Assembly: GCA_039028615.1 (NCBI GenBank)
Contig: JBCCHT010000078.1
Span: 1 to 22,731, forward strand
Source: Myxococcota bacterium
GTDB lineage: Bacteria > Myxococcota_A > Polyangia > Nannocystales > Nannocystaceae
Length of the DNA stretch: 22,731 nt
Direction: 5' to 3'
Made by a program: the position numbers and the translations under genes. This document shows positions 9,832-22,731 of the stretch, piece by piece. The notes under the pieces were generated by a model, which saw only the letters and a program-made list of their open reading frames with translations, made no database searches and was not told the DNA's origin. Every line of letters starts with the position of its first letter. The stretch's first letter is position 1.

Positions 9832-10758
9832 TCAGTCGAGGTGACGGCGGAGCCAGTCGAGGTAACGGGTCATGGGATCTTCGACGCGGAAGCCGATGGC
9901 GCCCCAGGTGGGCGTGTGGGTGACGGGTGCGAGCAGGGCGGCGACCTTGCGGGTGAGCGGCAGTCGGTCGCCCGCGTTGACGTCGCCCGGCCGCAGCTCG
10001 TCGCCCGCCACGATGGCCGCGCCGTGGTCGAGCTCGTGCACGGTGATGTCGGGCTCTTCGAGCGCCTCGCAGAGCCCGTCGACGTCCTTGCCGAGCGCCT
10101 CGAGGACCTCGGGGCCGAGCAGGGTGAGCCAGTAGGCCCCGCGTACGTGATCGCCGATCTGCAGCTGGGTGACGGAGGTGTTGTGCAGGTCGAAGCCGGG
10201 GTGACGCAGGCCGAGCGCGGGGGTCAGCTGGCGCTCGACCTTGGCGACGTCGGCGGCCTCGTAGTTGATGGCCATGCTGCAGTAGCCGGAGGAAAACGGC
10301 ACGTGGGCGGCCAGGGCGAGGATGTCCTCGACGAAGGTCTCGAGCCCGCGCTCCTCGGCCTTTTCGGTGGGCAGCCAGACCTCGATGGAGCTGGCGCGCT
10401 CTTCGTTGCCCTCGGTGCCGATCTCGTTGCCGATGTACGAAAACGCGTACTCGCCGACTTCGTACTCGGAGCCGGGGCCCTTCATGAGCACGAACTCGTT
10501 GGGCAGGCCGGTGGCCGCGGCGGCGGACATGCGCTTGCGGGCGCTATTGAAGCGGCGGGTGGTGAGCGGCTTCCACTGCTCGGCCGCGACGATGTGGTTG
10601 AGCGTGTCCTCGCCGATATAGGCCCGCAGGGCGTCGAAGAAGTCGCCGGCCTGGGCCGCGAGGTCGACGTGGCTGCGCCGCACGAACAGCACGAGCACGA
10701 TGCCATCCCGCGCGGCGGTGTTGCCGGTGGGGGGGTGACGCAAAGGGAGCAGGGACAT
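9832..10758 (-). CDS. DUF3396 (TsiV-like) immunity protein (308 aa)
   Basis: Start reassigned to ATG 10758. Motifs PFSSGY, RHPGFDL, VRGAYWLTLLGPEVLEALG, GDVNAGDRLP, terminal WLRR. Directly follows the toxin gene. Confidence 0.85.
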   Translation of the reverse strand: MSLLPLRHPPTGNTAARDGIVLVLFVRRSHVDLAAQAGDFFDALRAYIGEDTLNHIVAAEQWKPLTTRRFNSARKRMSAAAATGLPNEFVLMKGPGSEYEVGEYAFSYIGNEIGTEGNEERASSIEVWLPTEKAEERGLETFVEDILALAAHVPFSSGYCSMAINYEAADVAKVERQLTPALGLRHPGFDLHNTSVTQLQIGDHVRGAYWLTLLGPEVLEALGKDVDGLCEALEEPDITVHELDHGAAIVAGDELRPGDVNAGDRLPLTRKVAALLAPVTHTPTWGAIGFRVEDPMTRYLDWLRRHLD

Positions 10759-10766
10759 GGGGGATT

Positions 10767-11783
10767 TTAGAGGGCCACGATGGCCGAGGGGGTGTTGGGC
10801 TGGAGCATGGAGTCGTAGACCTGATTTTGCATCTGGCCGGACTTGTCCTTGGTCCAGTTTTGCTTGCCGCCCTTGGGGCAAGGGAACTTGAAGTCGTGGA
10901 TCGAGTCCACGTTGCCGCGGCTGGGCACCGCGTTGGGGTTGGAGGGCACGACCACGTCGGGGAACTTCTTGCCGCCGCACATGGCACCCACCGCCCCGTT
11001 GATGCTGCTGAAGGGGCTGTTGCCGCTGCGGAAGAAGCCGCGAGCCTGGCGAACGATGGCCTGCTGGGTCCGGGGCACCTGGGGCGGCGTGCCGCCCAGC
11101 GGGTTGTTGCGCGTGATGGCCTGACCGGTCGACTGCGTGTACGCGGGCTCGGAGTAGGCGTTGGGCGGCTGCCCGTTCTTGGCGCGGTCGGCCTGCGCCT
11201 GCTCGACCTTCTCGGCACAGCAGTCGTGCTTGGCCTTGCCGTCTTTGAGGCGCCGCTTCTTGCACTTTTCCTTGGCGTCGGGGTCGTTGGGATCGACGTT
11301 GCCGACCTGGTCTTCGCACTCTTCGGCGATCTTCTCGAGCGCGGCGACGATGGCGGGGGCCGTCGCGGCCTGGGCCAGCATGGTGGTGCCGGAGTTGGGC
11401 GGGTTGCTGTTGTTGTTGGTGGTGGGCTCGCTGAGCAAGTGGATGTTCTTGCCCTCGGCCTTGGTGTTCATCGAGCCGGGGCTGACGAACTTGGAGGGGC
11501 CGTGGGTGTTGGCGGAGACCATCCCGCCGCCCGTGCCCTTGCTCGGCACGTCGCCCATGCTCTTGAAGGTGGCGCCCTTGATCGCGATCACCTTGCCCTC
11601 GATCTTGACCTTCTTGGTGGCGCCCTTGAGGTTGTCGCCCGACTTGCCGATGTTGGGCAGCGGCGCGGGCACGAAGGGCGCGGGCGGACCGGGCATCTTG
11701 CAGATGTTGGGCATGGTCGCCGCGGTGATGCCCATGCTGCCCTTGGTCACGGGGGTCTTGGGTGGGTTTACGCCAGTCTTCAT
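10767..11783 (-). CDS. PAAR-like (DUF4150) domain fused to a PD-(D/E)xK VRR-NUC (TseV-like) nuclease toxin (338 aa)
   Basis: N-terminus PNICKMPGPPAPFVPAPLPNIG...KKVKIEG...GTGGGMVS...GSMNTKAEGKN. C-terminus FPDVVVPSNP...IHDFKFPC...QNQVY. Confidence 0.85.
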   Translation of the reverse strand: MKTGVNPPKTPVTKGSMGITAATMPNICKMPGPPAPFVPAPLPNIGKSGDNLKGATKKVKIEGKVIAIKGATFKSMGDVPSKGTGGGMVSANTHGPSKFVSPGSMNTKAEGKNIHLLSEPTTNNNSNPPNSGTTMLAQAATAPAIVAALEKIAEECEDQVGNVDPNDPDAKEKCKKRRLKDGKAKHDCCAEKVEQAQADRAKNGQPPNAYSEPAYTQSTGQAITRNNPLGGTPPQVPRTQQAIVRQARGFFRSGNSPFSSINGAVGAMCGGKKFPDVVVPSNPNAVPSRGNVDSIHDFKFPCPKGGKQNWTKDKSGQMQNQVYDSMLQPNTPSAIVAL

Positions 11784-11799
11784 CGGTCCAGATCACCTT

Positions 11800-12843
11800 T
11801 CAGGTGGGCAAGCTCAAGGTCGCGGCGGCTCGGGTTCCACCTTCCGAGCTCGTCCACAAAAGGACGTGCGGGCCGCGGGCGTACCCCCGCTGTCCCGACG
11901 CGATGGCCAGCATCGCCAGTAGAGGGCCCGACGCCGCCCCGACGTCGCCCCAGCAATCGGCCGGCGCTTCGAAGCGGTTGGAGTCGACGAAGGGGGCCCA
12001 CAGTCTCAATGGTACGTAAAAGAACTCGTCGTTGCGGTAGCGCTCGCCGTTGATGTCGCAGTAGGTGGTGGCGACCTTTTCCTCGGGCAGGCGCAGGGGC
12101 GCGGTCGCGCCTCGGATGGCCTCGGTGAGGCCCTCGCCGATGCAGATCCCGGGCGTCTTGATGGGATGCGGCTCGACGGCCGTGGACACGGCGCGCACGG
12201 TGGCGAGCACGGTCAGCCGCAGCGTGCGGGCCATGCTCTCGGTCATCACCACGAAAAAACCCGCGCCCTCGCCGGGGACGAACGACGAGCGGTTGGTCGC
12301 CGTCATGATCTGGCGCGTCTCGTCGAGCCAGTCGATGGTCTCGTGGTGCAGGTAGGTGTCGACGCCTCCGACGATGCAGCCGTGCACGCGCCCGGAGTCG
12401 ACCTCGCGCAGGGCCAGCTCGAGCGCGGCCAAGCCCGAGGCGTGACCTCGCGGCACGCTCATGACCTGCTCCAGGTTGAAGCGCTCGCCCAGGGTCGAGC
12501 TGAGCCGCCGCATGAGCTGCTTGGTGTCGGCCTCGCCCCAGCCGGGTCGCGTCTCGGGCACGCCCATCCATAGCGACAGGGTGGCCTTGCCCACGGGAAC
12601 GAGCGGCTCGATGCACTCTTGCAGGGCGCTCATGGCCAAGGTCTCGGCCCGGGCGGCGCCGCGCAGGTCGGGGTCGAGGGTGGCATCGACCGCGCAGCAC
12701 AGCGGATCGCCGGCCCCGTCGATCATGGTGGGGTGGCTCGCGTGCCGACTGATGCCCGCCCGGATCGCGGCCGCGCTCGTCTCGGCCCGCAGCCCGACGG
12801 GCGTGCGCGCGCCCATGGCGACGATGACGTGGGCCGCGCTCAT
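11800..12843 (-). CDS. Beta-ketoacyl-synthase-like (PRK06147-type) T6SS adaptor (347 aa)
   Basis: GARTPVGL...AAIRAGISR, GHASG, VGGVDT, FVPGEGAGF, DINGERYR, GDVGAASG. ATGA overlap with the DUF2169 gene. Confidence 0.85.
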   Translation of the reverse strand: MSAAHVIVAMGARTPVGLRAETSAAAIRAGISRHASHPTMIDGAGDPLCCAVDATLDPDLRGAARAETLAMSALQECIEPLVPVGKATLSLWMGVPETRPGWGEADTKQLMRRLSSTLGERFNLEQVMSVPRGHASGLAALELALREVDSGRVHGCIVGGVDTYLHHETIDWLDETRQIMTATNRSSFVPGEGAGFFVVMTESMARTLRLTVLATVRAVSTAVEPHPIKTPGICIGEGLTEAIRGATAPLRLPEEKVATTYCDINGERYRNDEFFYVPLRLWAPFVDSNRFEAPADCWGDVGAASGPLLAMLAIASGQRGYARGPHVLLWTSSEGGTRAAATLSLPT

Positions 12844-13856
12844 ATGTACGGCTTCTCCCGGATGAACGTGCTCTCGAGGTAGTCGGGCTCGTGGTGGCAG
12901 GGCAGGCTGGTGTGCCAGACCATGCTCAGCCGCGGGAAGTCGGGCTCGAGGATCACGGTGTGCAGCTTGGCGCGGTGCTCTTCGGTGCGCTGGCTTCGAC
13001 GCAGCGCGATGGTGGTGGTGAACGCCAAGAAGATCTTGGGCAGCGCGAAGCGGAGGGCGCCGTGGGGGTGGAGGTTGACCAGCTCGATCTCCGTGCCGCC
13101 GCGCAGGTGGGGGATGAACTGCTGGTCCGGGGGCGCGCACATGTAAAAGCGCGGGTCGAAATCCTCGGGCAGCAAGGGCTTGCGCTTTTCGATCCACTTG
13201 GCGTCGTAGGTGCCGCCGTAGGCCAGGCGCGGCGACCAGTAGCTGCAGATCGCTCCGAAGCCCGCCGCCCCCCGGCTGCCCGGGCTCGCGCCCGGGTACT
13301 CGATGTTGGCCACGGGCTGATCGATGAGGTGTGCCTTGCGAGCGACGTGCCCCGTGCCGATGGGGTTGTCGGTGAACATCCGCTGCTTGGCCAGATCGTC
13401 CGAGGTGGTGTCGTGACCCCCGTAGGCCCGCTCGTAGGTGATGGGCATCTTCTCGAACGCGGCCGGGCTCGAGGGCGAGACATCGGCGAGGTCTCGCTGC
13501 CACACGCGCTCGCCGGTCACCTCGAGGATCTTGCGCTGACCTCCGACCCCCAGCGCGACCGACATTCGCGTGGTGGGCTGGCCGTTGGGCGCGTACGCGT
13601 GGCCGACCACGTAGACGTCGGTGCCCGGCTTGGGCGGGATCATGTCCATCTCGTAGCGGAGGCTCGATTCGCCGTCGTCGCCGAAGTACTCGGGGGCGAC
13701 GACGGGGTCGACCTGTTCCTCGGACAGCGACAGCTGACCGTCGAGGCCGATGTCGAAGGTACCCTTGACGACCACGACCCAACGACGGGCGCCATTGGGA
13801 TCCTGAACCCACGTGAAATCGGCCTTGTACGGTGTGCTGTTACGGAGCTCCCACAT
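12840..13856 (-). CDS. DUF2169-family T6SS effector chaperone (338 aa)
   Basis: Start reassigned to ATG 13856 (MWELRNSTPY). VVVVKGTFDI, PKPGTDVYVVGHAYAP, YERAYGG, NPIGTG, WSPR..YGGTYD..W, LPEDFDPRFYMCAPPDQ, LRGG. Confidence 0.92.
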   Translation of the reverse strand: MWELRNSTPYKADFTWVQDPNGARRWVVVVKGTFDIGLDGQLSLSEEQVDPVVAPEYFGDDGESSLRYEMDMIPPKPGTDVYVVGHAYAPNGQPTTRMSVALGVGGQRKILEVTGERVWQRDLADVSPSSPAAFEKMPITYERAYGGHDTTSDDLAKQRMFTDNPIGTGHVARKAHLIDQPVANIEYPGASPGSRGAAGFGAICSYWSPRLAYGGTYDAKWIEKRKPLLPEDFDPRFYMCAPPDQQFIPHLRGGTEIELVNLHPHGALRFALPKIFLAFTTTIALRRSQRTEEHRAKLHTVILEPDFPRLSMVWHTSLPCHHEPDYLESTFIREKPYI

Positions 13857-14495
13857 GGCGACGGACCGAGACGAACGGCGGCCATCATACGACGAGTTCG
13901 AGGTCGCGGCACCCGGATCGCGGCGCGCTCGTGCGTACGGAAAAACCCCATGCCCCACCTGCTTGGGGTCGACGTGCGACACCCCCTCGAGGATCGTCGG
14001 CGTGGTGTTGAACGCACGCGTCTTTGCGTTCACTACCGAGTGCTCGGTGATCGAAAAGCGGAAACGATCGAGCCGCGGTCGTGGCGATCGAACGCGGTCG
14101 ACCACGAGCGGCGCGCGACCGAGCCGTGGCCTTCGCGAGCAGACGCGAAGCGGCCTCCGGTCGCCGGGGCACTCGTCGGCCGGTCGGCATCGAGAGCCGG
14201 CCGCCCACGTGACCGGCCGAGTCGCGAGGTCGACCCCGCGTCGGCGTCGTGGCACGGGGCTGGGGCCGCCCCGCCATCCGCGGGTGGGGCAGGCGACCCT
14301 CAGAACCGTGAAAAGCTCCGTGATCTCGATGGCTTGAGCCCAGGTCCCGACCCTCGAAGCGACCGGCTCGGCGGGGTCCATCGCCGGCACGCTCACGCGG
14401 CCACGAAGCGCCAAAATCCGCGCGCTGAGGCCCGGCTGCGCGTAGATCGAGCGGTTTCATGGCATCCGCCCGTGAACCCGAGTAAAAGGGGGTCC

Positions 14496-17042: not shown

Positions 17043-17227
17043 GGCGACGGCGTAAGGCGTGACGCCGAGACGAACGAAGTCTCGGTGCCCCGCACGAGCT
17101 TGCCCAACCGCGTGAGCCCAGGCAACCGCATCGGAGGCATGACGGACGATGTTTTCCGTTCCGGCCCGGGTGACCATCCGCCTACACTCGGACCGCGCCG
17201 TTACTATTGACGGGGAGTCGGTCCTAC

Positions 17228-20200
17228 ATGGGTGACCCCACGGATTCAGTCCTGATCCTCGAGTTCGCGCGGAGCCACGCGCCGCAGGATCCCCACGCTT
17301 TTCGTTTCGAGCCGCAGACCTACACGCTGCGGACCGAACGAGGCGGGCGGGCGCTGTTCGAGGTGGACTGGAGCGCGGCGCTTCTCGCCGATATCGAGGC
17401 CCTGCGCCAGCCCGATCGCGATCCCGAGGTGGTCCAGCGGCTGGGCGAGACGATGGCTCGCTTCCTGGAGAGAGCGTCGTGGGCGACGCGGGCCCAGGCC
17501 ATCGCCGAGGCCCACGACGCGGGGCAGCGGGTGGTCATCACCATTCGCTCCAGCGCGGCGGAGCTGCACGCGCTGCCGTGGGAGCTGGTGACGCTGCCCG
17601 GGCGGGGGCAGCACCTGGGCAGCCTGCCGCGGGTCTTGCTTCGCTACGAACGACCGGAGACGGTGACGGCGACCGAGTCGCCGTCGCCTCGCCCCGAGGG
17701 CGGCCGGGTGCTGCTGGCGTGGTCGGCCGCGGCCGGTGCCGTGCCCGCCGCGGCGCACGAATCCGCGCTTCGAAAAGCATGTGAAGAGGGTCACCTCGAT
17801 GGCGCGGACGCGGTCGAGGTGTTGTCGCACGCGAGCGTGCGCAGCATCGCAGACGCGCTGACCCGGGCCGAGCGCAACGATCGACCCATCGCCGTGCTGC
17901 ACCTGCTGTGTCACGGCGGCAAGGCAGGGCAATCGGCGGGGCTAGTGCTCGACGGCAAGTCGCGGCCAGTGGTGGTCGCGGCGGATACCTGGCGCACGAT
18001 GCTGGCTCCGCACGCGGCCAGCCTGCGCCTGGTCGTGCTGGCGGCGTGCGACGGCGGCAACATGGGCGAGCCGGGCAGCCACCTGGGCAGCGTCGCTCAG
18101 GCCCTGCACGCGGCGGGGATCCAGTCGGTGGTCGCGTCGCGCTACTCGCTTTCGGCCAGCGGCTCGACCACGCTCACCGAGTCGCTCTACGAGGCGCTGC
18201 TGGTGCGCCGCGAGTCGCTCCAAGACGCGCTGCTCGACGCGCGGGCGCAGCTCGCTCTCGATCCGGTGCACCTGGATTGGCCCGCCGTGCAGTACAGCGC
18301 CCGGGCCGAAGACGGCGACGACACTCGACCCTTCGTGGTGCGCCCGTATCGAGGCTTGTTGGCGTTCGAGACCCGCCAGGCCGAGTTCTTCCACGGTCGC
18401 GCCGACGAACGCCAGGCGGTCACGAGCTGCCTGAAGGGTCTGGTCGACGGGGGCAAGCCGCGGTTGGTGGTGGTCGCGGGTGCCTCGGGGACGGGCAAGT
18501 CGTCGTTGGTGCGAGCGGGGGCGGTGCCGGACATCGTGGCCGGCCGAGGCGGGCCCTGGGAGCACGCGATCATTCGCCCGGGCAGCGACCCGGTGGGCGC
18601 GCTCGAGGGGGCGCTGGCGGACCGCAACGACGAGTCGCACTCGCTGCTGCTGGTGATCGATCAGTTCGAGGAGATCTTCACCCACACCCGCGATCCGGAG
18701 CTTCGACAGCGCTTCGCCCGGAGCCTGTGGGCGCTGGCCAACGGCGACACCAAGGTCTGCTGCATCCTGTCGCTGCGCGTCGATTTTCTGGGTCGCTGCG
18801 GCGAGCTGCGGCTCGACGAGCGCGGCACTCGGCTCGACCAAGTGGCGTACGACGATGCCCATCGGGTGTTCGTGGCTCAGATGTCTCCGCCCCAGCTGCG
18901 CGAGGCGATCGTTCGTCCCGCGGAGGCGGTGGGCATCGTCTTGGCCGAAGGGCTCGCCGAGCGTATCGTGACCGAGGTCGCGAGCGAGCCGGGGGCGCTG
19001 CCCCTGATGCAGTACACCCTCGATCAGCTGTGGCAGATCCGAAACGGGCAGACGCTGACGCAAGAGGCGTACGACGACCTCGGCGGTGTGGTCGGGGCGA
19101 TCGAGCGACGCGCCGATGCCCTGCTCGACGAGTTCACCGAGCAGGAGTTGCACTGGGCCCGGCAGATGCTGACGCAGCTGGTGGGCCTGGGCGACGACGA
19201 CACGGGGGACACCCGTCGGCGCGTGCCGGTCGAGCAGCTGTGGGCAGGGATCGACGGCGAGCGGCGGGGCATCGAAGCGGTGCTGCATCGCTTCGTCGAC
19301 GAGCGCCTCGTGGTGCGCGACGACCGAAGCGCGGGCGGAGCCACCGTCGAGATCGCCCACGAGGCGCTGGTGCGTCGCTGGGAGCGGCTCCGCGATTGGT
19401 TGGGTGACGAGCGGGAGCGTCGAATCGGGCGCTACATCGTGCTCGAGGCGACCTACGAGCGCGGCCGGGAGCAACACTTCACCGCGTACGATCCGACCCT
19501 CGATCGTCGGGTCAAGCTCCGGCAGCTCCGGGTCGGTCGGCGAGGCACGGAAGAGCGCCGCCGCATTCAAGAGCAGGCCCGCGCCCTGGCCCGGCTGTCG
19601 CATCCCCACGCTGAAGCCATCTACGACGTCGGCGTGAGCAAGGGCCACGTGTATCTCGCCACCGAGCTGGTGGAGGGGCGCCCCCTCGGAGCGTGGCTCG
19701 AGCAGGACGAGCCCTCGCAGGCCGAGATCGTCGAGCGCTTCATCGAGGCGGGTCGAGCTCTGGCCGCAGCCCACGAGATCGGGGTGATCCACCGCGGCTT
19801 CAACCCCGATTCCATTCGCATCGAAGACGGCGGCGGGGCCAAGGTGGTGGGCTTTGCCCTCGATCGCAGAGTCGAGGTGCGCGACACGGGGCGCAGCGAA
19901 GACACCATGCTGGCCCGCGTTCGGGCGCGCGGCTCGGGGCCCTCGCCCGCGGCCCGCTCCATCTCGCCCAGCGTGGCCACCGTAGAGCCCAGCTTGGGTT
20001 CGGTGAGCAAGTCGAGCGTGCTCAACGACGGGGTGTACCTGCCGCCCGAGCAGCTGCGGGGCCTGCCCTTGGTCCCCGCGAGCGACCAGTTCGCGTTCTG
20101 TCTGTCGCTGTACGAGGCGATCCACGGCGAGCGCCCGTTTTCGGGGCCGAGCCTGGTCTTCAACAAGCTCGACAGCACCACCAGCCGGGCGGTGACCTCC

Positions 20201-21604
20201 TCGGGCTCGACCATCGCCCCGTTGCTGCGCAAGGTGCTGTCGCGGGGCTTGGCCGGCGATCCCAAGCAACGCTGGCCATCGATGGACGCGCTGTGTGAGG
20301 AACTCGTTTCGTCGCAGGCCCAGCCCTCCGCCGGGGCGGTGGCGCGCTCGTTCGTCTTGCCCGTGGCGCTGGGGGTGTTGGCGCTCGTCGGTGGGCTGAC
20401 CTGGTGGGGCCTGTCGGGCGACGAACCGCCGTCGTCGACCTGCTCGGATGCCGACGTCTCGCTCGAAGAGGTCTGGGACATCACGCGGCGCGGGGACACG
20501 CGGGCGGCGCTGCTGAGCGTGGGCCGAGCCTCGGCGATCTCCGCCTGGAAGCGAGCCGAGCCCCGGCTCGAGGGCTACGCCTCCGTGTGGATCGAGCGGA
20601 GATCTGCGGCCTGCGAGAGCACCGAAGAGCACGCGTCGCTGGTCGCGGCTTGCCTCGACGAGCGGCGGATGGACCTGCGCGAGGCGGTGAACGTGCTGCT
20701 GCGCGCGGACGCTCAGACCATCGATCACGTGGATGCCTTGGTGCAGGGGCTGCCGCGGCTGGAGCGTTGCGACGATCTCGAGATCGTCCAGGCGGAGGCG
20801 CTGCCCACCGACCCGGAGGCCAAGGCCGAGGTCCTGGAGCTGCGCGAGCGGTTGGCCGTCGTGCGGGCGAAGTTCCTCGGCGGCGACGAAACGCAGGCGG
20901 AGGCGCTGGCCAGCGAGGTCGTGGAGCAGGCGGGCGACTCGAGCCGCGAGTACGGCGAGGGGCTGCGGCTGCGCGGACAGGTGCGAGCACAGGCGGGCAA
21001 GATCGAGGCGGCGCTCGGTGATCTCGAAGCCGCGGTGGGCCAGGCCCTGGCCGGGGGCCACACCGCCGTCGCCGCTCGGGCTGCGATCGCGCTGGCGAGG
21101 GTCATCGGCCGTGACGACGCGCGGGTCGAAGCGGCACAGGTCTGGGCGACGCTGGCGATCTCACTGGCGGAGCCCGCGACGGTCGATGCCGAGGTCCGGA
21201 CCGAGGCGCTCGCGGCCATGGGCTGGGTCCAGCAGCGGCGGGGGGACGCGGCCGACGCCAAGCAGTGGTACGAGCGTGCGCTCACGGCCCAGGTCGAGCT
21301 CCGCGGGCCCGAGCACCGGAGCGTGGTGCTGCTTCACGAGGCGCTGGCCGAGGTGGCGCTTTCGCAGGGCAAGACGGCCGAAGCGCGGGAAAACGCCGAG
21401 CAGGCGGTGAAGCTGGCCGAGCAGGGTAGCGCGGGGGAGCTGGGCCTGGCCGCGGCGCGCTTCCTGCTGGCTCGGTCGCTGCCGGAGGTCTCGGCCACCC
21501 GCGCTCGCGAGCTGGCCGAAGAGGCGCTCGACTTCTACTCCGCCCACGGCGGCCACGAAGCGCGGGTCAAGGCGATCGAGCAATGGCTCCAGTCGCGGTC
21601 GTGA
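17228..21604 (+). CDS. CHAT (caspase-like) protease - nSTAND1-type NTPase - Ser/Thr pseudokinase - TM - extracytoplasmic helical/TPR protein (1458 aa)
   Basis: ATG 17228 after GGGGAG. LPWE, LHLLCHG, LAACDG; PYRGL, GASGTGKSS, LLLVIDQFEE, GALPL, EIAHEAL..W; IGRY, LARLSHP, HRGFNP, PPEQ, SDQFAF; TM FVLPVALGVLALVGGLTWWGL; C-terminal TPR-like helices. Confidence 0.92.
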   Translation: MGDPTDSVLILEFARSHAPQDPHAFRFEPQTYTLRTERGGRALFEVDWSAALLADIEALRQPDRDPEVVQRLGETMARFLERASWATRAQAIAEAHDAGQRVVITIRSSAAELHALPWELVTLPGRGQHLGSLPRVLLRYERPETVTATESPSPRPEGGRVLLAWSAAAGAVPAAAHESALRKACEEGHLDGADAVEVLSHASVRSIADALTRAERNDRPIAVLHLLCHGGKAGQSAGLVLDGKSRPVVVAADTWRTMLAPHAASLRLVVLAACDGGNMGEPGSHLGSVAQALHAAGIQSVVASRYSLSASGSTTLTESLYEALLVRRESLQDALLDARAQLALDPVHLDWPAVQYSARAEDGDDTRPFVVRPYRGLLAFETRQAEFFHGRADERQAVTSCLKGLVDGGKPRLVVVAGASGTGKSSLVRAGAVPDIVAGRGGPWEHAIIRPGSDPVGALEGALADRNDESHSLLLVIDQFEEIFTHTRDPELRQRFARSLWALANGDTKVCCILSLRVDFLGRCGELRLDERGTRLDQVAYDDAHRVFVAQMSPPQLREAIVRPAEAVGIVLAEGLAERIVTEVASEPGALPLMQYTLDQLWQIRNGQTLTQEAYDDLGGVVGAIERRADALLDEFTEQELHWARQMLTQLVGLGDDDTGDTRRRVPVEQLWAGIDGERRGIEAVLHRFVDERLVVRDDRSAGGATVEIAHEALVRRWERLRDWLGDERERRIGRYIVLEATYERGREQHFTAYDPTLDRRVKLRQLRVGRRGTEERRRIQEQARALARLSHPHAEAIYDVGVSKGHVYLATELVEGRPLGAWLEQDEPSQAEIVERFIEAGRALAAAHEIGVIHRGFNPDSIRIEDGGGAKVVGFALDRRVEVRDTGRSEDTMLARVRARGSGPSPAARSISPSVATVEPSLGSVSKSSVLNDGVYLPPEQLRGLPLVPASDQFAFCLSLYEAIHGERPFSGPSLVFNKLDSTTSRAVTSSGSTIAPLLRKVLSRGLAGDPKQRWPSMDALCEELVSSQAQPSAGAVARSFVLPVALGVLALVGGLTWWGLSGDEPPSSTCSDADVSLEEVWDITRRGDTRAALLSVGRASAISAWKRAEPRLEGYASVWIERRSAACESTEEHASLVAACLDERRMDLREAVNVLLRADAQTIDHVDALVQGLPRLERCDDLEIVQAEALPTDPEAKAEVLELRERLAVVRAKFLGGDETQAEALASEVVEQAGDSSREYGEGLRLRGQVRAQAGKIEAALGDLEAAVGQALAGGHTAVAARAAIALARVIGRDDARVEAAQVWATLAISLAEPATVDAEVRTEALAAMGWVQQRRGDAADAKQWYERALTAQVELRGPEHRSVVLLHEALAEVALSQGKTAEARENAEQAVKLAEQGSAGELGLAAARFLLARSLPEVSATRARELAEEALDFYSAHGGHEARVKAIEQWLQSRS

Positions 21605-21732
21605 TCGACCCGACCCGCTGTGATGCATGCGCGTACATGCACCCCGATGCGCGCCCGTAACCGGGCCCAGCTCACAATTAATTCGAGTTCCGGGCTGCGA
21701 CGACGGGTCGATCGGCCCGTCTCTCGTTAGCG

Positions 21733-22731
21733 ATGACTCGGATTCGCGTACGAACTCTCGGTCCCTCGTGTCTCGCCCTGTCGCTCATCGTCGGCTGCGG
21801 CGACGACGGGGCCGGTGCCAACGACGATACCGGGGCGACCGACGGCTCGGCCGCGACCATGGGCGACGACGGCAGCGGCGACGAAACGGCGGCCGACGGC
21901 ACCGGGGGCGAGACCCAAGACGGCAGCGACGACGGGCCTTCGCCCAACTGCGGCAACGGGGTCATCGATGACGACGAGACCTGCGACGGCGACGACCTGG
22001 GCGGCGCGACCTGTGCCGACTTCGGCGGGGAGACGGGCGAGCTTTCGTGCAACGCCTGCCAGATCGACTCCAGCGCGTGCGGCCTGCTGCCCGCGACCCA
22101 GTTCGGCGACGGGGCCCCGTGGTCTCTGCCCGACGGCGGCGACAGCTTCGACGGCTTCTACAACCTCAGCGGCTCGGAGTGGGACGACGGCGATCAGTCG
22201 TGGTCGACGGTCGACCTGACGGGGGATGGCCTGCCCGACCTGGTGATCACCAACGAAGGGGGCGACCCGATCACGAGCGGAGGCGACCAGTACTGGTGGG
22301 TGTACCCGAACACGGGCGATGGCTTCGGCGAAGTCACGACCTGGGCGTTGCCCAACGGCGGGGATGCGTTCGACGGGTTCTATGCGCTGGGGGGCTCGGA
22401 GTGGGACGACGGCGACCAGTCGTGGTCGACGGTCGACCTGACGGGGGACGGCCGGCCCGACCTGGTGGTCACCAACGAGGGCGGTGACCCGATCACGAGC
22501 GGGGGCGACCAGTACTGGTGGGTGTACCCGAACACGGGCGACGGCTTCGGTGAAGCGACGACGTGGGCATTGCCCAACGGCGGTGACGCGTTCGACGGGT
22601 TCTATGCGCTGGGGGGCTCGGAGTGGGACGACGGCGATCAGTCCTGGTCGACGGTCGACCTGACGGGGGACGGCCTGCCCGACCTGGTGATCACGAACGA
22701 AGGGGGCGACCCGATCACGAGCGGAGGCGAC
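21733..22731 (+). CDS. Surface lipoprotein with acidic linker, myxobacterial Cys-rich repeat and FG-GAP/VCBS-like repeats (3' end beyond window)
   Basis: Translated by hand; absent from the ORF track because it has no stop in the window. MTRIRVRTLGPSCLALSLIVGC (lipobox), CGNGVIDDDETCDG, repeated VDLTGDGxPDLV...WVYPNTGDGF. Confidence 0.9.
   Translation, partial: MTRIRVRTLGPSCLALSLIVGCGDDGAGANDDTGATDGSAATMGDDGSGDETAADGTGGETQDGSDDGPSPNCGNGVIDDDETCDGDDLGGATCADFGGETGELSCNACQIDSSACGLLPATQFGDGAPWSLPDGGDSFDGFYNLSGSEWDDGDQSWSTVDLTGDGLPDLVITNEGGDPITSGGDQYWWVYPNTGDGFGEVTTWALPNGGDAFDGFYALGGSEWDDGDQSWSTVDLTGDGRPDLVVTNEGGDPITSGGDQYWWVYPNTGDGFGEATTWALPNGGDAFDGFYALGGSEWDDGDQSWSTVDLTGDGLPDLVITNEGGDPITSGGD
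22102..22731 (+). repeat. Coding tandem repeat with a 222-bp (74-aa) period, nearly three copies visible
   Basis: GGCTCGGAGTGGGACGACGGCGA recurs at 22171, 22393 and 22615. Confidence 0.95.

Follow-up and report, generated by a model that had tools for sequence, protein, structure and literature searches.

Bacterial STAND NTPases that resemble NLR immune receptors frequently carry a CHAT domain at the N terminus (10.1101/2020.01.06.895854), and caspase-STAND-WD40 proteins have been described (PMC13581612). The nSTAND1 clade was named by Kaur et al. 2021 (PMC8195603), with caspase and kinase domains among its N-terminal effectors, and some STAND proteins have a predicted periplasmic sensor (10.1101/2023.09.22.558884). 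The CHAT domain of a myxobacterial SAVED-CHAT protein is activated by oligomerization (10.1101/2023.06.23.546230). Bacterial conflict (VMAP) systems include inactive kinase domains, and inactive enzyme copies there have been likened to eukaryotic decoys; the 5′ gene of the two-gene EACC1 system encodes an EACC1 protein with a single transmembrane (TM) helix (PMC7159879). In plants, the NLR of the ZAR1-ZED1-PBL system senses kinase perturbation via a pseudokinase (PMC6634424). Here we analyse an open reading frame (ORF) of a Myxococcota bacterium (GCA_039028615.1, contig JBCCHT010000078.1) that joins a CHAT protease and an nSTAND1 NTPase to a dead receptor kinase. The window, that is, the whole stretch of DNA analysed, is an entire contig of 22.7 kb from a 12.3-Mb genome.

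The ORF is free of internal stops and encodes 1458 residues (the query); an alternative in-frame TTG start lies at 17207. Pfam matches run in the order CHAT (residues 92–345, E = 1.6e-17), nSTAND1 (PF20703; residues 373–733, E = 7.3e-96, 322.5 bits against a cut-off of 27.1), Pkinase (E = 6.3e-12) and TPR_12 (residues 1331–1399). An earlier note on this DNA, made from the sequence alone, had read one ORF joining a CHAT domain, an NTPase, a kinase fold, a TM helix and a cysteine-containing TPR region, and the intact frame and the Pfam matches bear this out. Its features are:

17228..21604, + strand: the whole ORF, CHAT - nSTAND1 - pseudokinase - TM - four-cysteine module - TPR, 1458 residues (ORF list, Pfam)
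17228..18322, + strand: N-terminal extension and CHAT caspase-like protease, residues 1–365 (Pfam, dyad retention, fold match, PADLOC)
18323..19423, + strand: nSTAND1 NTPase, comprising nucleotide-binding domain, helical domain and winged helix (Pfam, motifs)
19424..20320, + strand: Hanks-type pseudokinase, residues 733–1031 (residue alignment, fold matches)
19892..19930, + strand: invariant motif R-S-x-x-T-x-x-A-R-x-x-A-R in the activation segment, residues 889–901 (15/15 fused proteins)
20351..20413, + strand: predicted single TM helix, about residues 1042–1062 (hydropathy ≥1.7 in 13/14 family members)
20441..20770, + strand: four-cysteine helical module, Cys1072, 1129, 1142 and 1181 (cysteine invariance in relatives)
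20813..21601, + strand: shortened TPR array of about 12 helices (Pfam, AlphaFold2 (AF2) model, fold match)

What distinguishes this protein lies directly behind the winged helix. Kinase-free CHAT-nSTAND1 relatives have, behind the winged helix, a helical arm of about 60–120 residues, then a TM helix, then WD40 or TPR repeats. Such relatives already have a TM helix within 140 residues after the STAND domain in 90/105 cases, usually with WD40 or TPR to follow (the set comprised proteins whose winged helix was complete and whose tail ran to at least 100 residues, and a TM helix was called from a 19-mer of hydropathy ≥1.8 in that interval), so the parent is, on this prediction, already a single-pass NLR-like receptor. 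The membrane-spanning layout, previously taken as the novelty, was thus inherited. In the query the helical arm and repeat sensor of STAND proteins are not found after the winged helix, where the kinase starts directly. In copies of the branch that keeps the TM helix (the TM branch), the nSTAND1 Pfam match ends at model position 359/379, the point at which relatives start their helical arm; in the genus, the remaining full-length nSTAND1 matches over 1e-85 extend to 367–378 of 379. The graft removed the helical arm and put a kinase directly behind the winged helix, and the new element is a pseudokinase in place of the STAND helical arm. That an entire kinase-TM-TPR receptor had been grafted onto CHAT-nSTAND1 holds, and the trees place the event once; the donor is indeed an expanded host family, with 159 paralogues in this genome matching both the kinase and the ectodomain.

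The grafted domain has the kinase fold that had been recognized in it: besides the Pfam match, its model matches PknS (9eed; Z 26.5, root mean square deviation 2.6, 243 aligned residues), as well as PknB and PknA. Judged by its residues, it is a catalytically dead kinase and not an active Hanks-type Ser/Thr kinase. The query has lost the Gly loop and the catalytic-loop Lys and Asn, with β3 Lys changed to Arg, αC Glu to Gln, HRD to HRG and DFG to GFA. The Lys/Glu/Asp/Asp catalytic set is intact in 0/15 fused proteins versus 154/157 canonical host paralogues; all 15 have Gln for the αC Glu and lack the catalytic Asp, yet retain the domain. A reading of the Thr to Asp change in the P+1 loop (9/15) as a phosphomimic was set aside, since lost catalysis would account for the absence of that Thr as well.

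Conservation along the fused proteins is uneven. Mean pairwise identity is 75% in CHAT, 76–77% in STAND and 74% in the kinase N-lobe, then 51–56% in the C-lobe and 44–48% in the ectodomain. The junction had been described as seamless, and so it is: WERLRDW-IGRY lies as placed, with IGRY at 19424, and residues 715–740 are 87% identical with no indel in 15/15. The difference between N-lobe and C-lobe identity is 0.227 in the fused proteins against 0.093 (s.d. 0.065) for 1877 comparably diverged canonical pairs, which are not independent of one another. In all four close pairs the N-lobe (89–94%) follows STAND (88–96%), whereas the C-lobe (68–89%) and ectodomain (65–80%) lag. Structure models were made of two pieces, residues 1–1035 and 1036–1458; in the first, cytoplasmic piece (mean predicted local distance difference test score (pLDDT) 84.9, predicted template modelling score 0.72), the final helix of the winged helix continues straight into the first kinase strand. 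Among 21 family-specific conserved kinase positions, nine fall in the junction or N-lobe and eight in the activation segment. The latter holds the motif at residues 889–901, found in 15/15 fused proteins, each residue of which occurs in at most 16% of the 157 canonical paralogues; this region is hypervariable in those paralogues (25% identity). AF2 places a helix at 891–901, with low confidence.

The protease and NTPase appear intact, and by sequence the protein is a member of both the CHAT and the nSTAND1 families. The query has a caspase fold with a His-Cys dyad, as expected of a CHAT caspase-like protease. The motifs LCHG and AACDG begin at 17906 and 18041, which puts the codons of His229 and Cys274 at 17912 and 18047, exactly where the earlier note had them, and both residues are retained in all family members covering these sites. 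The modelled domain matches SAVED-CHAT 8tl0 (Z 22.2, root mean square deviation 2.3, 192 aligned residues), and the PADLOC SAVED_CHAT profile matches with E = 7e-31. In the NTPase, Walker A (GASGTGKS, 18479–18502) and Walker B (IDQFEE, 18656–18673) are intact, again as claimed, and are accompanied by what we take, from general knowledge of STAND ATPases, to be sensor-1 Arg517, PGALP at 588–592 and His711-Glu712. The Walker A, Walker B, sensor-1 Arg, GxP and winged-helix motifs are invariant in 15/15 fused proteins and in at least 100/101 relatives. A phmmer search of solved structures with the CHAT-STAND part gave no significant match, and the STAND fold was barely probed by the fold searches of the 1035-residue model because kinase matches filled their output.

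The fusion is real, conserved, narrow in range and, apparently, undescribed. A junction query of 73 family genomes, in which no more than 44 candidates were scored for each genome, matched the STAND-kinase junction in four of six genus genomes (G000, G002, G004 and G005, the last with two copies) and in 0/67 other family genomes, confining the fusion to one genus among those searched. The two genus genomes with no match are fragmented (72% and 92% complete). None of the five genomic copies contains an internal stop. In a protein collection, the query, 14 other 90% clusters that contain the complete join, P0016 and two more sister-branch proteins make 18 clusters; the genomic copies overlap these and were not counted a second time. 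The named relatives are Myxococcota, including Paraliomyxa miuraensis. A profile search of 1.84 billion representatives listed, within its best 150, seven proteins that span the join, each a member of the query's family, and among 250 further kinase or STAND matches the STAND domain preceded the kinase in two family fragments only, the reverse order occurring in 36. The fused proteins are about 53–64% identical to the query and keep every CHAT and STAND catalytic residue. The best nSTAND1 matches in G001 and G003 proved to be other nSTAND1 proteins, as did what had looked like a second copy of the sister branch in G004.

A midpoint-rooted tree of 72 STAND sequences, taken from every fused protein whose STAND is complete (17) and from the first 55 of 102 others, groups the fused proteins in one clade (support 1.0; TM branch 0.979). 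The 18 fused kinases likewise make up a single clade (support 1.0) in a tree built together with the kinases of 157 host paralogues. A single origin of the fusion is the simplest interpretation. The earlier note had raised misassembly and a strain-unique chimera as ways in which the fusion might prove false; neither holds, because the same junction recurs in four of six genus genomes and in 18 clusters of one clade. At the level of reads, a 4153-nt contig of run X1 spans 18048–21800 and bridges the join with zero differences and flat depth across the fusion point, although it is not an independent check because X1 may be the source of the window DNA.

Several observations concern the wider family. 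The genome G000 has 340 ORFs matching the kinase domain, 25 matching CHAT and one full-length nSTAND1 of the query's type, together with two paralogues (C6:159112-161154 and C29:16504-19002) in which a CHAT of this subfamily (49% identity) is joined directly to a TM helix and outer domain with no STAND between. The parent CHAT-nSTAND1 family (P0125-P0228; L017-L019, L033-L047) consists mostly of single-pass proteins for which the predicted outer part is WD40, TPR or next to nothing, and 10/101 of its proteins have at most 220 residues after STAND. P0122 is a tandem CHAT-STAND-CHAT-STAND protein. Two near-identical CHAT-nSTAND1 copies, L020 and L021 of G008, lie on different contigs with frameshifts at different places, possibly through assembly error or decay. 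The sister branch of the fusion (L016:8187-12320; P0016, P0123, P0124) has the order CHAT-nSTAND1-shortened pseudokinase-AAA_35, no TM helix and two NTPase domains per protein; its activation segment is deleted and the join between STAND and N-lobe retained. G005 holds both branches.

From the architecture, the intact protease and NTPase motifs, the dead kinase, the single origin and the conservation pattern, we infer a sequence of dynamic steps. We propose, at a probability of roughly 0.4, that the query is a membrane-anchored, STAND-gated caspase-like protease with the cytoplasmic pseudokinase as regulatory input. As the join is kept while the outer part shrinks, the dead kinase may control the protease. 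The N-lobe, fused to the winged helix in the arm's place, would hold STAND off, and phosphorylation of the Ser890/Thr893 motif, or binding there, would release it; the release would come from a related active receptor kinase, of which the cell has many, or from a foreign factor directed against these kinases. Nucleotide exchange and oligomerization would then cluster the CHAT domains and lead to cleavage of a specific substrate. The TM helix would hold the protein in the membrane beside its paralogues, with the ectodomain secondary. The output may be death, defence or ordinary signalling, and the protein is not shown to be an anti-phage system.

The outer part of the protein bears on where the signal comes from. 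The query's strongest hydrophobic 19-mer lies at residues 1037–1055 (Kyte-Doolittle 2.03) and does not have the Arg run that precedes the helix in most relatives. The helix is kept in 14/14 TM-branch sequences (P0006, which is partial, was excluded, and P0007, also partial, was entered in the full form read from its genome), with a hydropathy of at least 1.7 in 13. Beyond it, the query carries the four-cysteine module and TPR array of myxobacterial kinase-TM-TPR receptors, the array shortened, and the model of residues 1036–1458 (pLDDT 92.5) consists entirely of helices in the ectodomain and matched TPR structures in a fold search. The four cysteines are invariant in 8/8 fused proteins that keep the module and in 60/60 sampled canonical paralogues, which fits an extracytoplasmic location, and the module, missing in 6/14 relatives, is probably disulphide-bonded and outside the cytoplasm. 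The TM helix and cysteine-rich outer part described in the earlier note are therefore credible. An Atlas search with the four-cysteine module returned matches only at 0.82, below the useful level.

This outer part is labile. The length after the TM helix is 402–423 residues in seven of the 14 sequences, 233 in one and at most 131 in six; all 14 are shorter than canonical paralogues, for which the 5th–95th percentile range is 521–705 residues in a set of 158 chosen by ectodomain homology. Five of the six short forms retain the terminal helices and so look like in-frame deletions. One, P0010, known from its protein sequence alone, ends eight residues past the TM helix, and short forms occur in at least two separate clades. 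Uncorrected proportions of nonsynonymous (pN) and synonymous (pS) differences, with synonymous sites probably near saturation, are 0.40–0.51 versus 0.47–0.57 in the ectodomain and 0.14–0.22 versus 0.37–0.50 in CHAT and STAND; in the N-lobe, too, pN is well below pS.

These data weigh most directly on the model put forward earlier, in which a periplasmic ligand binds or clusters the cysteine/TPR ectodomain and the TM helix and a rigid pseudokinase pass the signal on, so that STAND oligomerizes and CHAT becomes active. Its appeal lies in the conserved helix, in a confidently modelled TPR ectodomain with four invariant cysteines, in the seven members that keep 402–423 residues outside, and in the parent family, whose topology is the same with WD40 or TPR outside, making outside-in signalling probably ancestral; periplasmic sensors on STAND proteins have also been predicted before (10.1101/2023.09.22.558884). 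Yet the ectodomain falls below canonical length throughout and measures at most 131 residues in six members whose CHAT and STAND are intact, its pN nears pS unlike that of CHAT and STAND, and the sister branch has no TM helix at all. We regard the model as possible though doubtful. The periplasmic cue as a conserved trigger is weakened by an ectodomain that is the fastest-evolving part and shortened in all 14 measured.

Our proposal of the pseudokinase as regulatory input faces difficulties of its own. In half of the members (7/14) the ectodomain is full and well folded and its cysteines are invariant, and genuine sensors, too, are expected to evolve fast. N-lobe conservation could be purely structural, and canonical N-lobes are likewise somewhat more conserved than their C-lobes. 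The motif region has pLDDT below 50 except at residues 898–901, and the AAA_35 sister branch, having deleted its activation segment, shows that not every fused protein carries the motif. Co-adaptation of the winged helix, sought in clade-specific residues, was rejected: 17/26 lie in the winged helix, but seven control clades ranged from 0 to 75%. Finally, 0/9 window neighbours match the four homologous loci.

A further reading would make the protein a bacterial one-protein counterpart of the plant ZAR1-pseudokinase guard, the dead kinase copy, set within an NLR-like STAND, monitoring the activity or sabotage of the host's massively expanded receptor kinase family via its phospho-acceptor helix and firing the protease; by analogy this is conceivable, and we consider it unlikely. 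The N-lobe might instead merely cap the NTPase, replacing the STAND arm while the rest of the kinase serves as a spacer and the trigger acts on STAND itself or via local membrane concentration. The N-lobe is the sole kinase part conserved at STAND level, and the AAA_35 branch kept the N-lobe join after losing the activation segment, as such a cap would have it; the new 889–901 motif, invariant in 15/15 TM-branch proteins where canonical paralogues are hypervariable, is left unexplained, and we think this explanation unlikely. Decay, in which a lineage-restricted domain-shuffling product with no dedicated signalling role slowly erodes from its C terminus, accords with the restriction to one genus and the two genus genomes that lack a match, with repeated C-terminal loss in an unconserved context, and with a donor family of more than 150 copies per genome from which such fusions are easily made, but is very unlikely given that the CHAT and STAND catalytic residues are all kept at such divergence, that pS far exceeds pN in CHAT, STAND and N-lobe, and that the deletions are in frame with terminal helices kept and 0/5 genomic copies bear an internal stop.

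The neighbourhood offers little guidance. Pfam assigns the 31 hand-picked neighbours at the four homologous loci to metabolism or signalling or leaves them unknown, and by Pfam only (PADLOC was not applied) no defence family was found among them or among the window genes scanned; nor was a substrate, adaptor or defence island seen in the neighbourhoods of the window and these loci. The gene upstream of the fusion ORF is divergent and has no Pfam match, and upstream genes differ among loci. An all-against-all tblastx of the loci was disregarded as GC-driven noise, and a promoter/terminator scan was at chance level. Elsewhere in the window, 9832–14414 (− strand) holds a cassette of effector and immunity genes of the type VI secretion system type (DUF2169, PRK06147-like, Tox-PAAR-like and TsiV immunity) that is not common to the homologous loci; a DUF4123 gene adjoins the G002 copy. 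Downstream, 21733–22731 (+ strand) is a lipoprotein-like ORF with near-identical FG-GAP repeats that runs off the contig end.

If the pseudokinase is the switch, the protein connects two large myxobacterial expansions, the hundreds of receptor Ser/Thr kinases and the NLR-like STAND-caspase proteins, and would show in a bacterium what to our knowledge is known only from plants, an NLR activated through a pseudokinase gate. MLKL, in which a pseudokinase is the switch gating a death effector, is a functional analogy only. The natural deletion series, with full, partial, minimal or no ectodomain and a branch devoid of the TM helix, opens the question of input to direct testing. As most retrieved CHAT-nSTAND1 relatives are predicted to be single-pass, the question of STAND activation across a membrane extends to them. 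The earlier note knew of no characterization of this architecture, and a full-text search, with subscription journals mostly uncovered and papers judged by title and the opening of the abstract, found no published pseudokinase-after-STAND architecture in bacteria, although the source data of PMC8195603 and PMC7159879 could list it.

Set against known systems, the query shares with Avs and bacterial Apaf-1-like STANDs a caspase-like protease at the N terminus, a STAND domain and C-terminal repeats; the characterized members sense phage proteins intracellularly, and the accessible part of that source does not mention a pseudokinase (PMC13581612). No Avs model was among the best 25 of 29 PADLOC matches. 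The closest solved match listed for the protease is the SAVED-CHAT of Haliangium ochraceum (8tl0), which differs in being soluble, in being triggered by cA3 binding to SAVED and in sharing an operon with its substrate PCaspase (10.1101/2023.06.23.546230); no such partner adjoins the query. Plant ZAR1-ZED1/ZRK-PBL (PMC6634424) is a functional analogy only, a pseudokinase switch gating an NLR, built from separate proteins with another STAND clade and effector and with homology limited to generic folds. Kinase-nSTAND1-sensor proteins (36/250 screened) combine the same two domains, but their kinase is N-terminal, in the effector position, whereas the query's is dead and follows STAND. Myxobacterial Hanks-type kinase-TM-4Cys-TPR receptors (PKN8-like by a source name) are the donor of residues 733–1458 and share the four cysteines and terminal helices; in the query the kinase is inactivated and has a new activation-segment motif, about 200 residues of TPR are gone, and the whole is fused behind STAND. 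Also close are the CHAT-nSTAND1-TM-WD40/TPR proteins of Myxococcota (PF20703; PMC8195603), which have the same CHAT subfamily and NTPase (about 43–55% STAND identity), the same order of effector, NTPase and sensor, and a single TM helix after STAND; where they carry a helical arm and WD40 or TPR repeats, the query carries a pseudokinase and the ectodomain of a kinase family.

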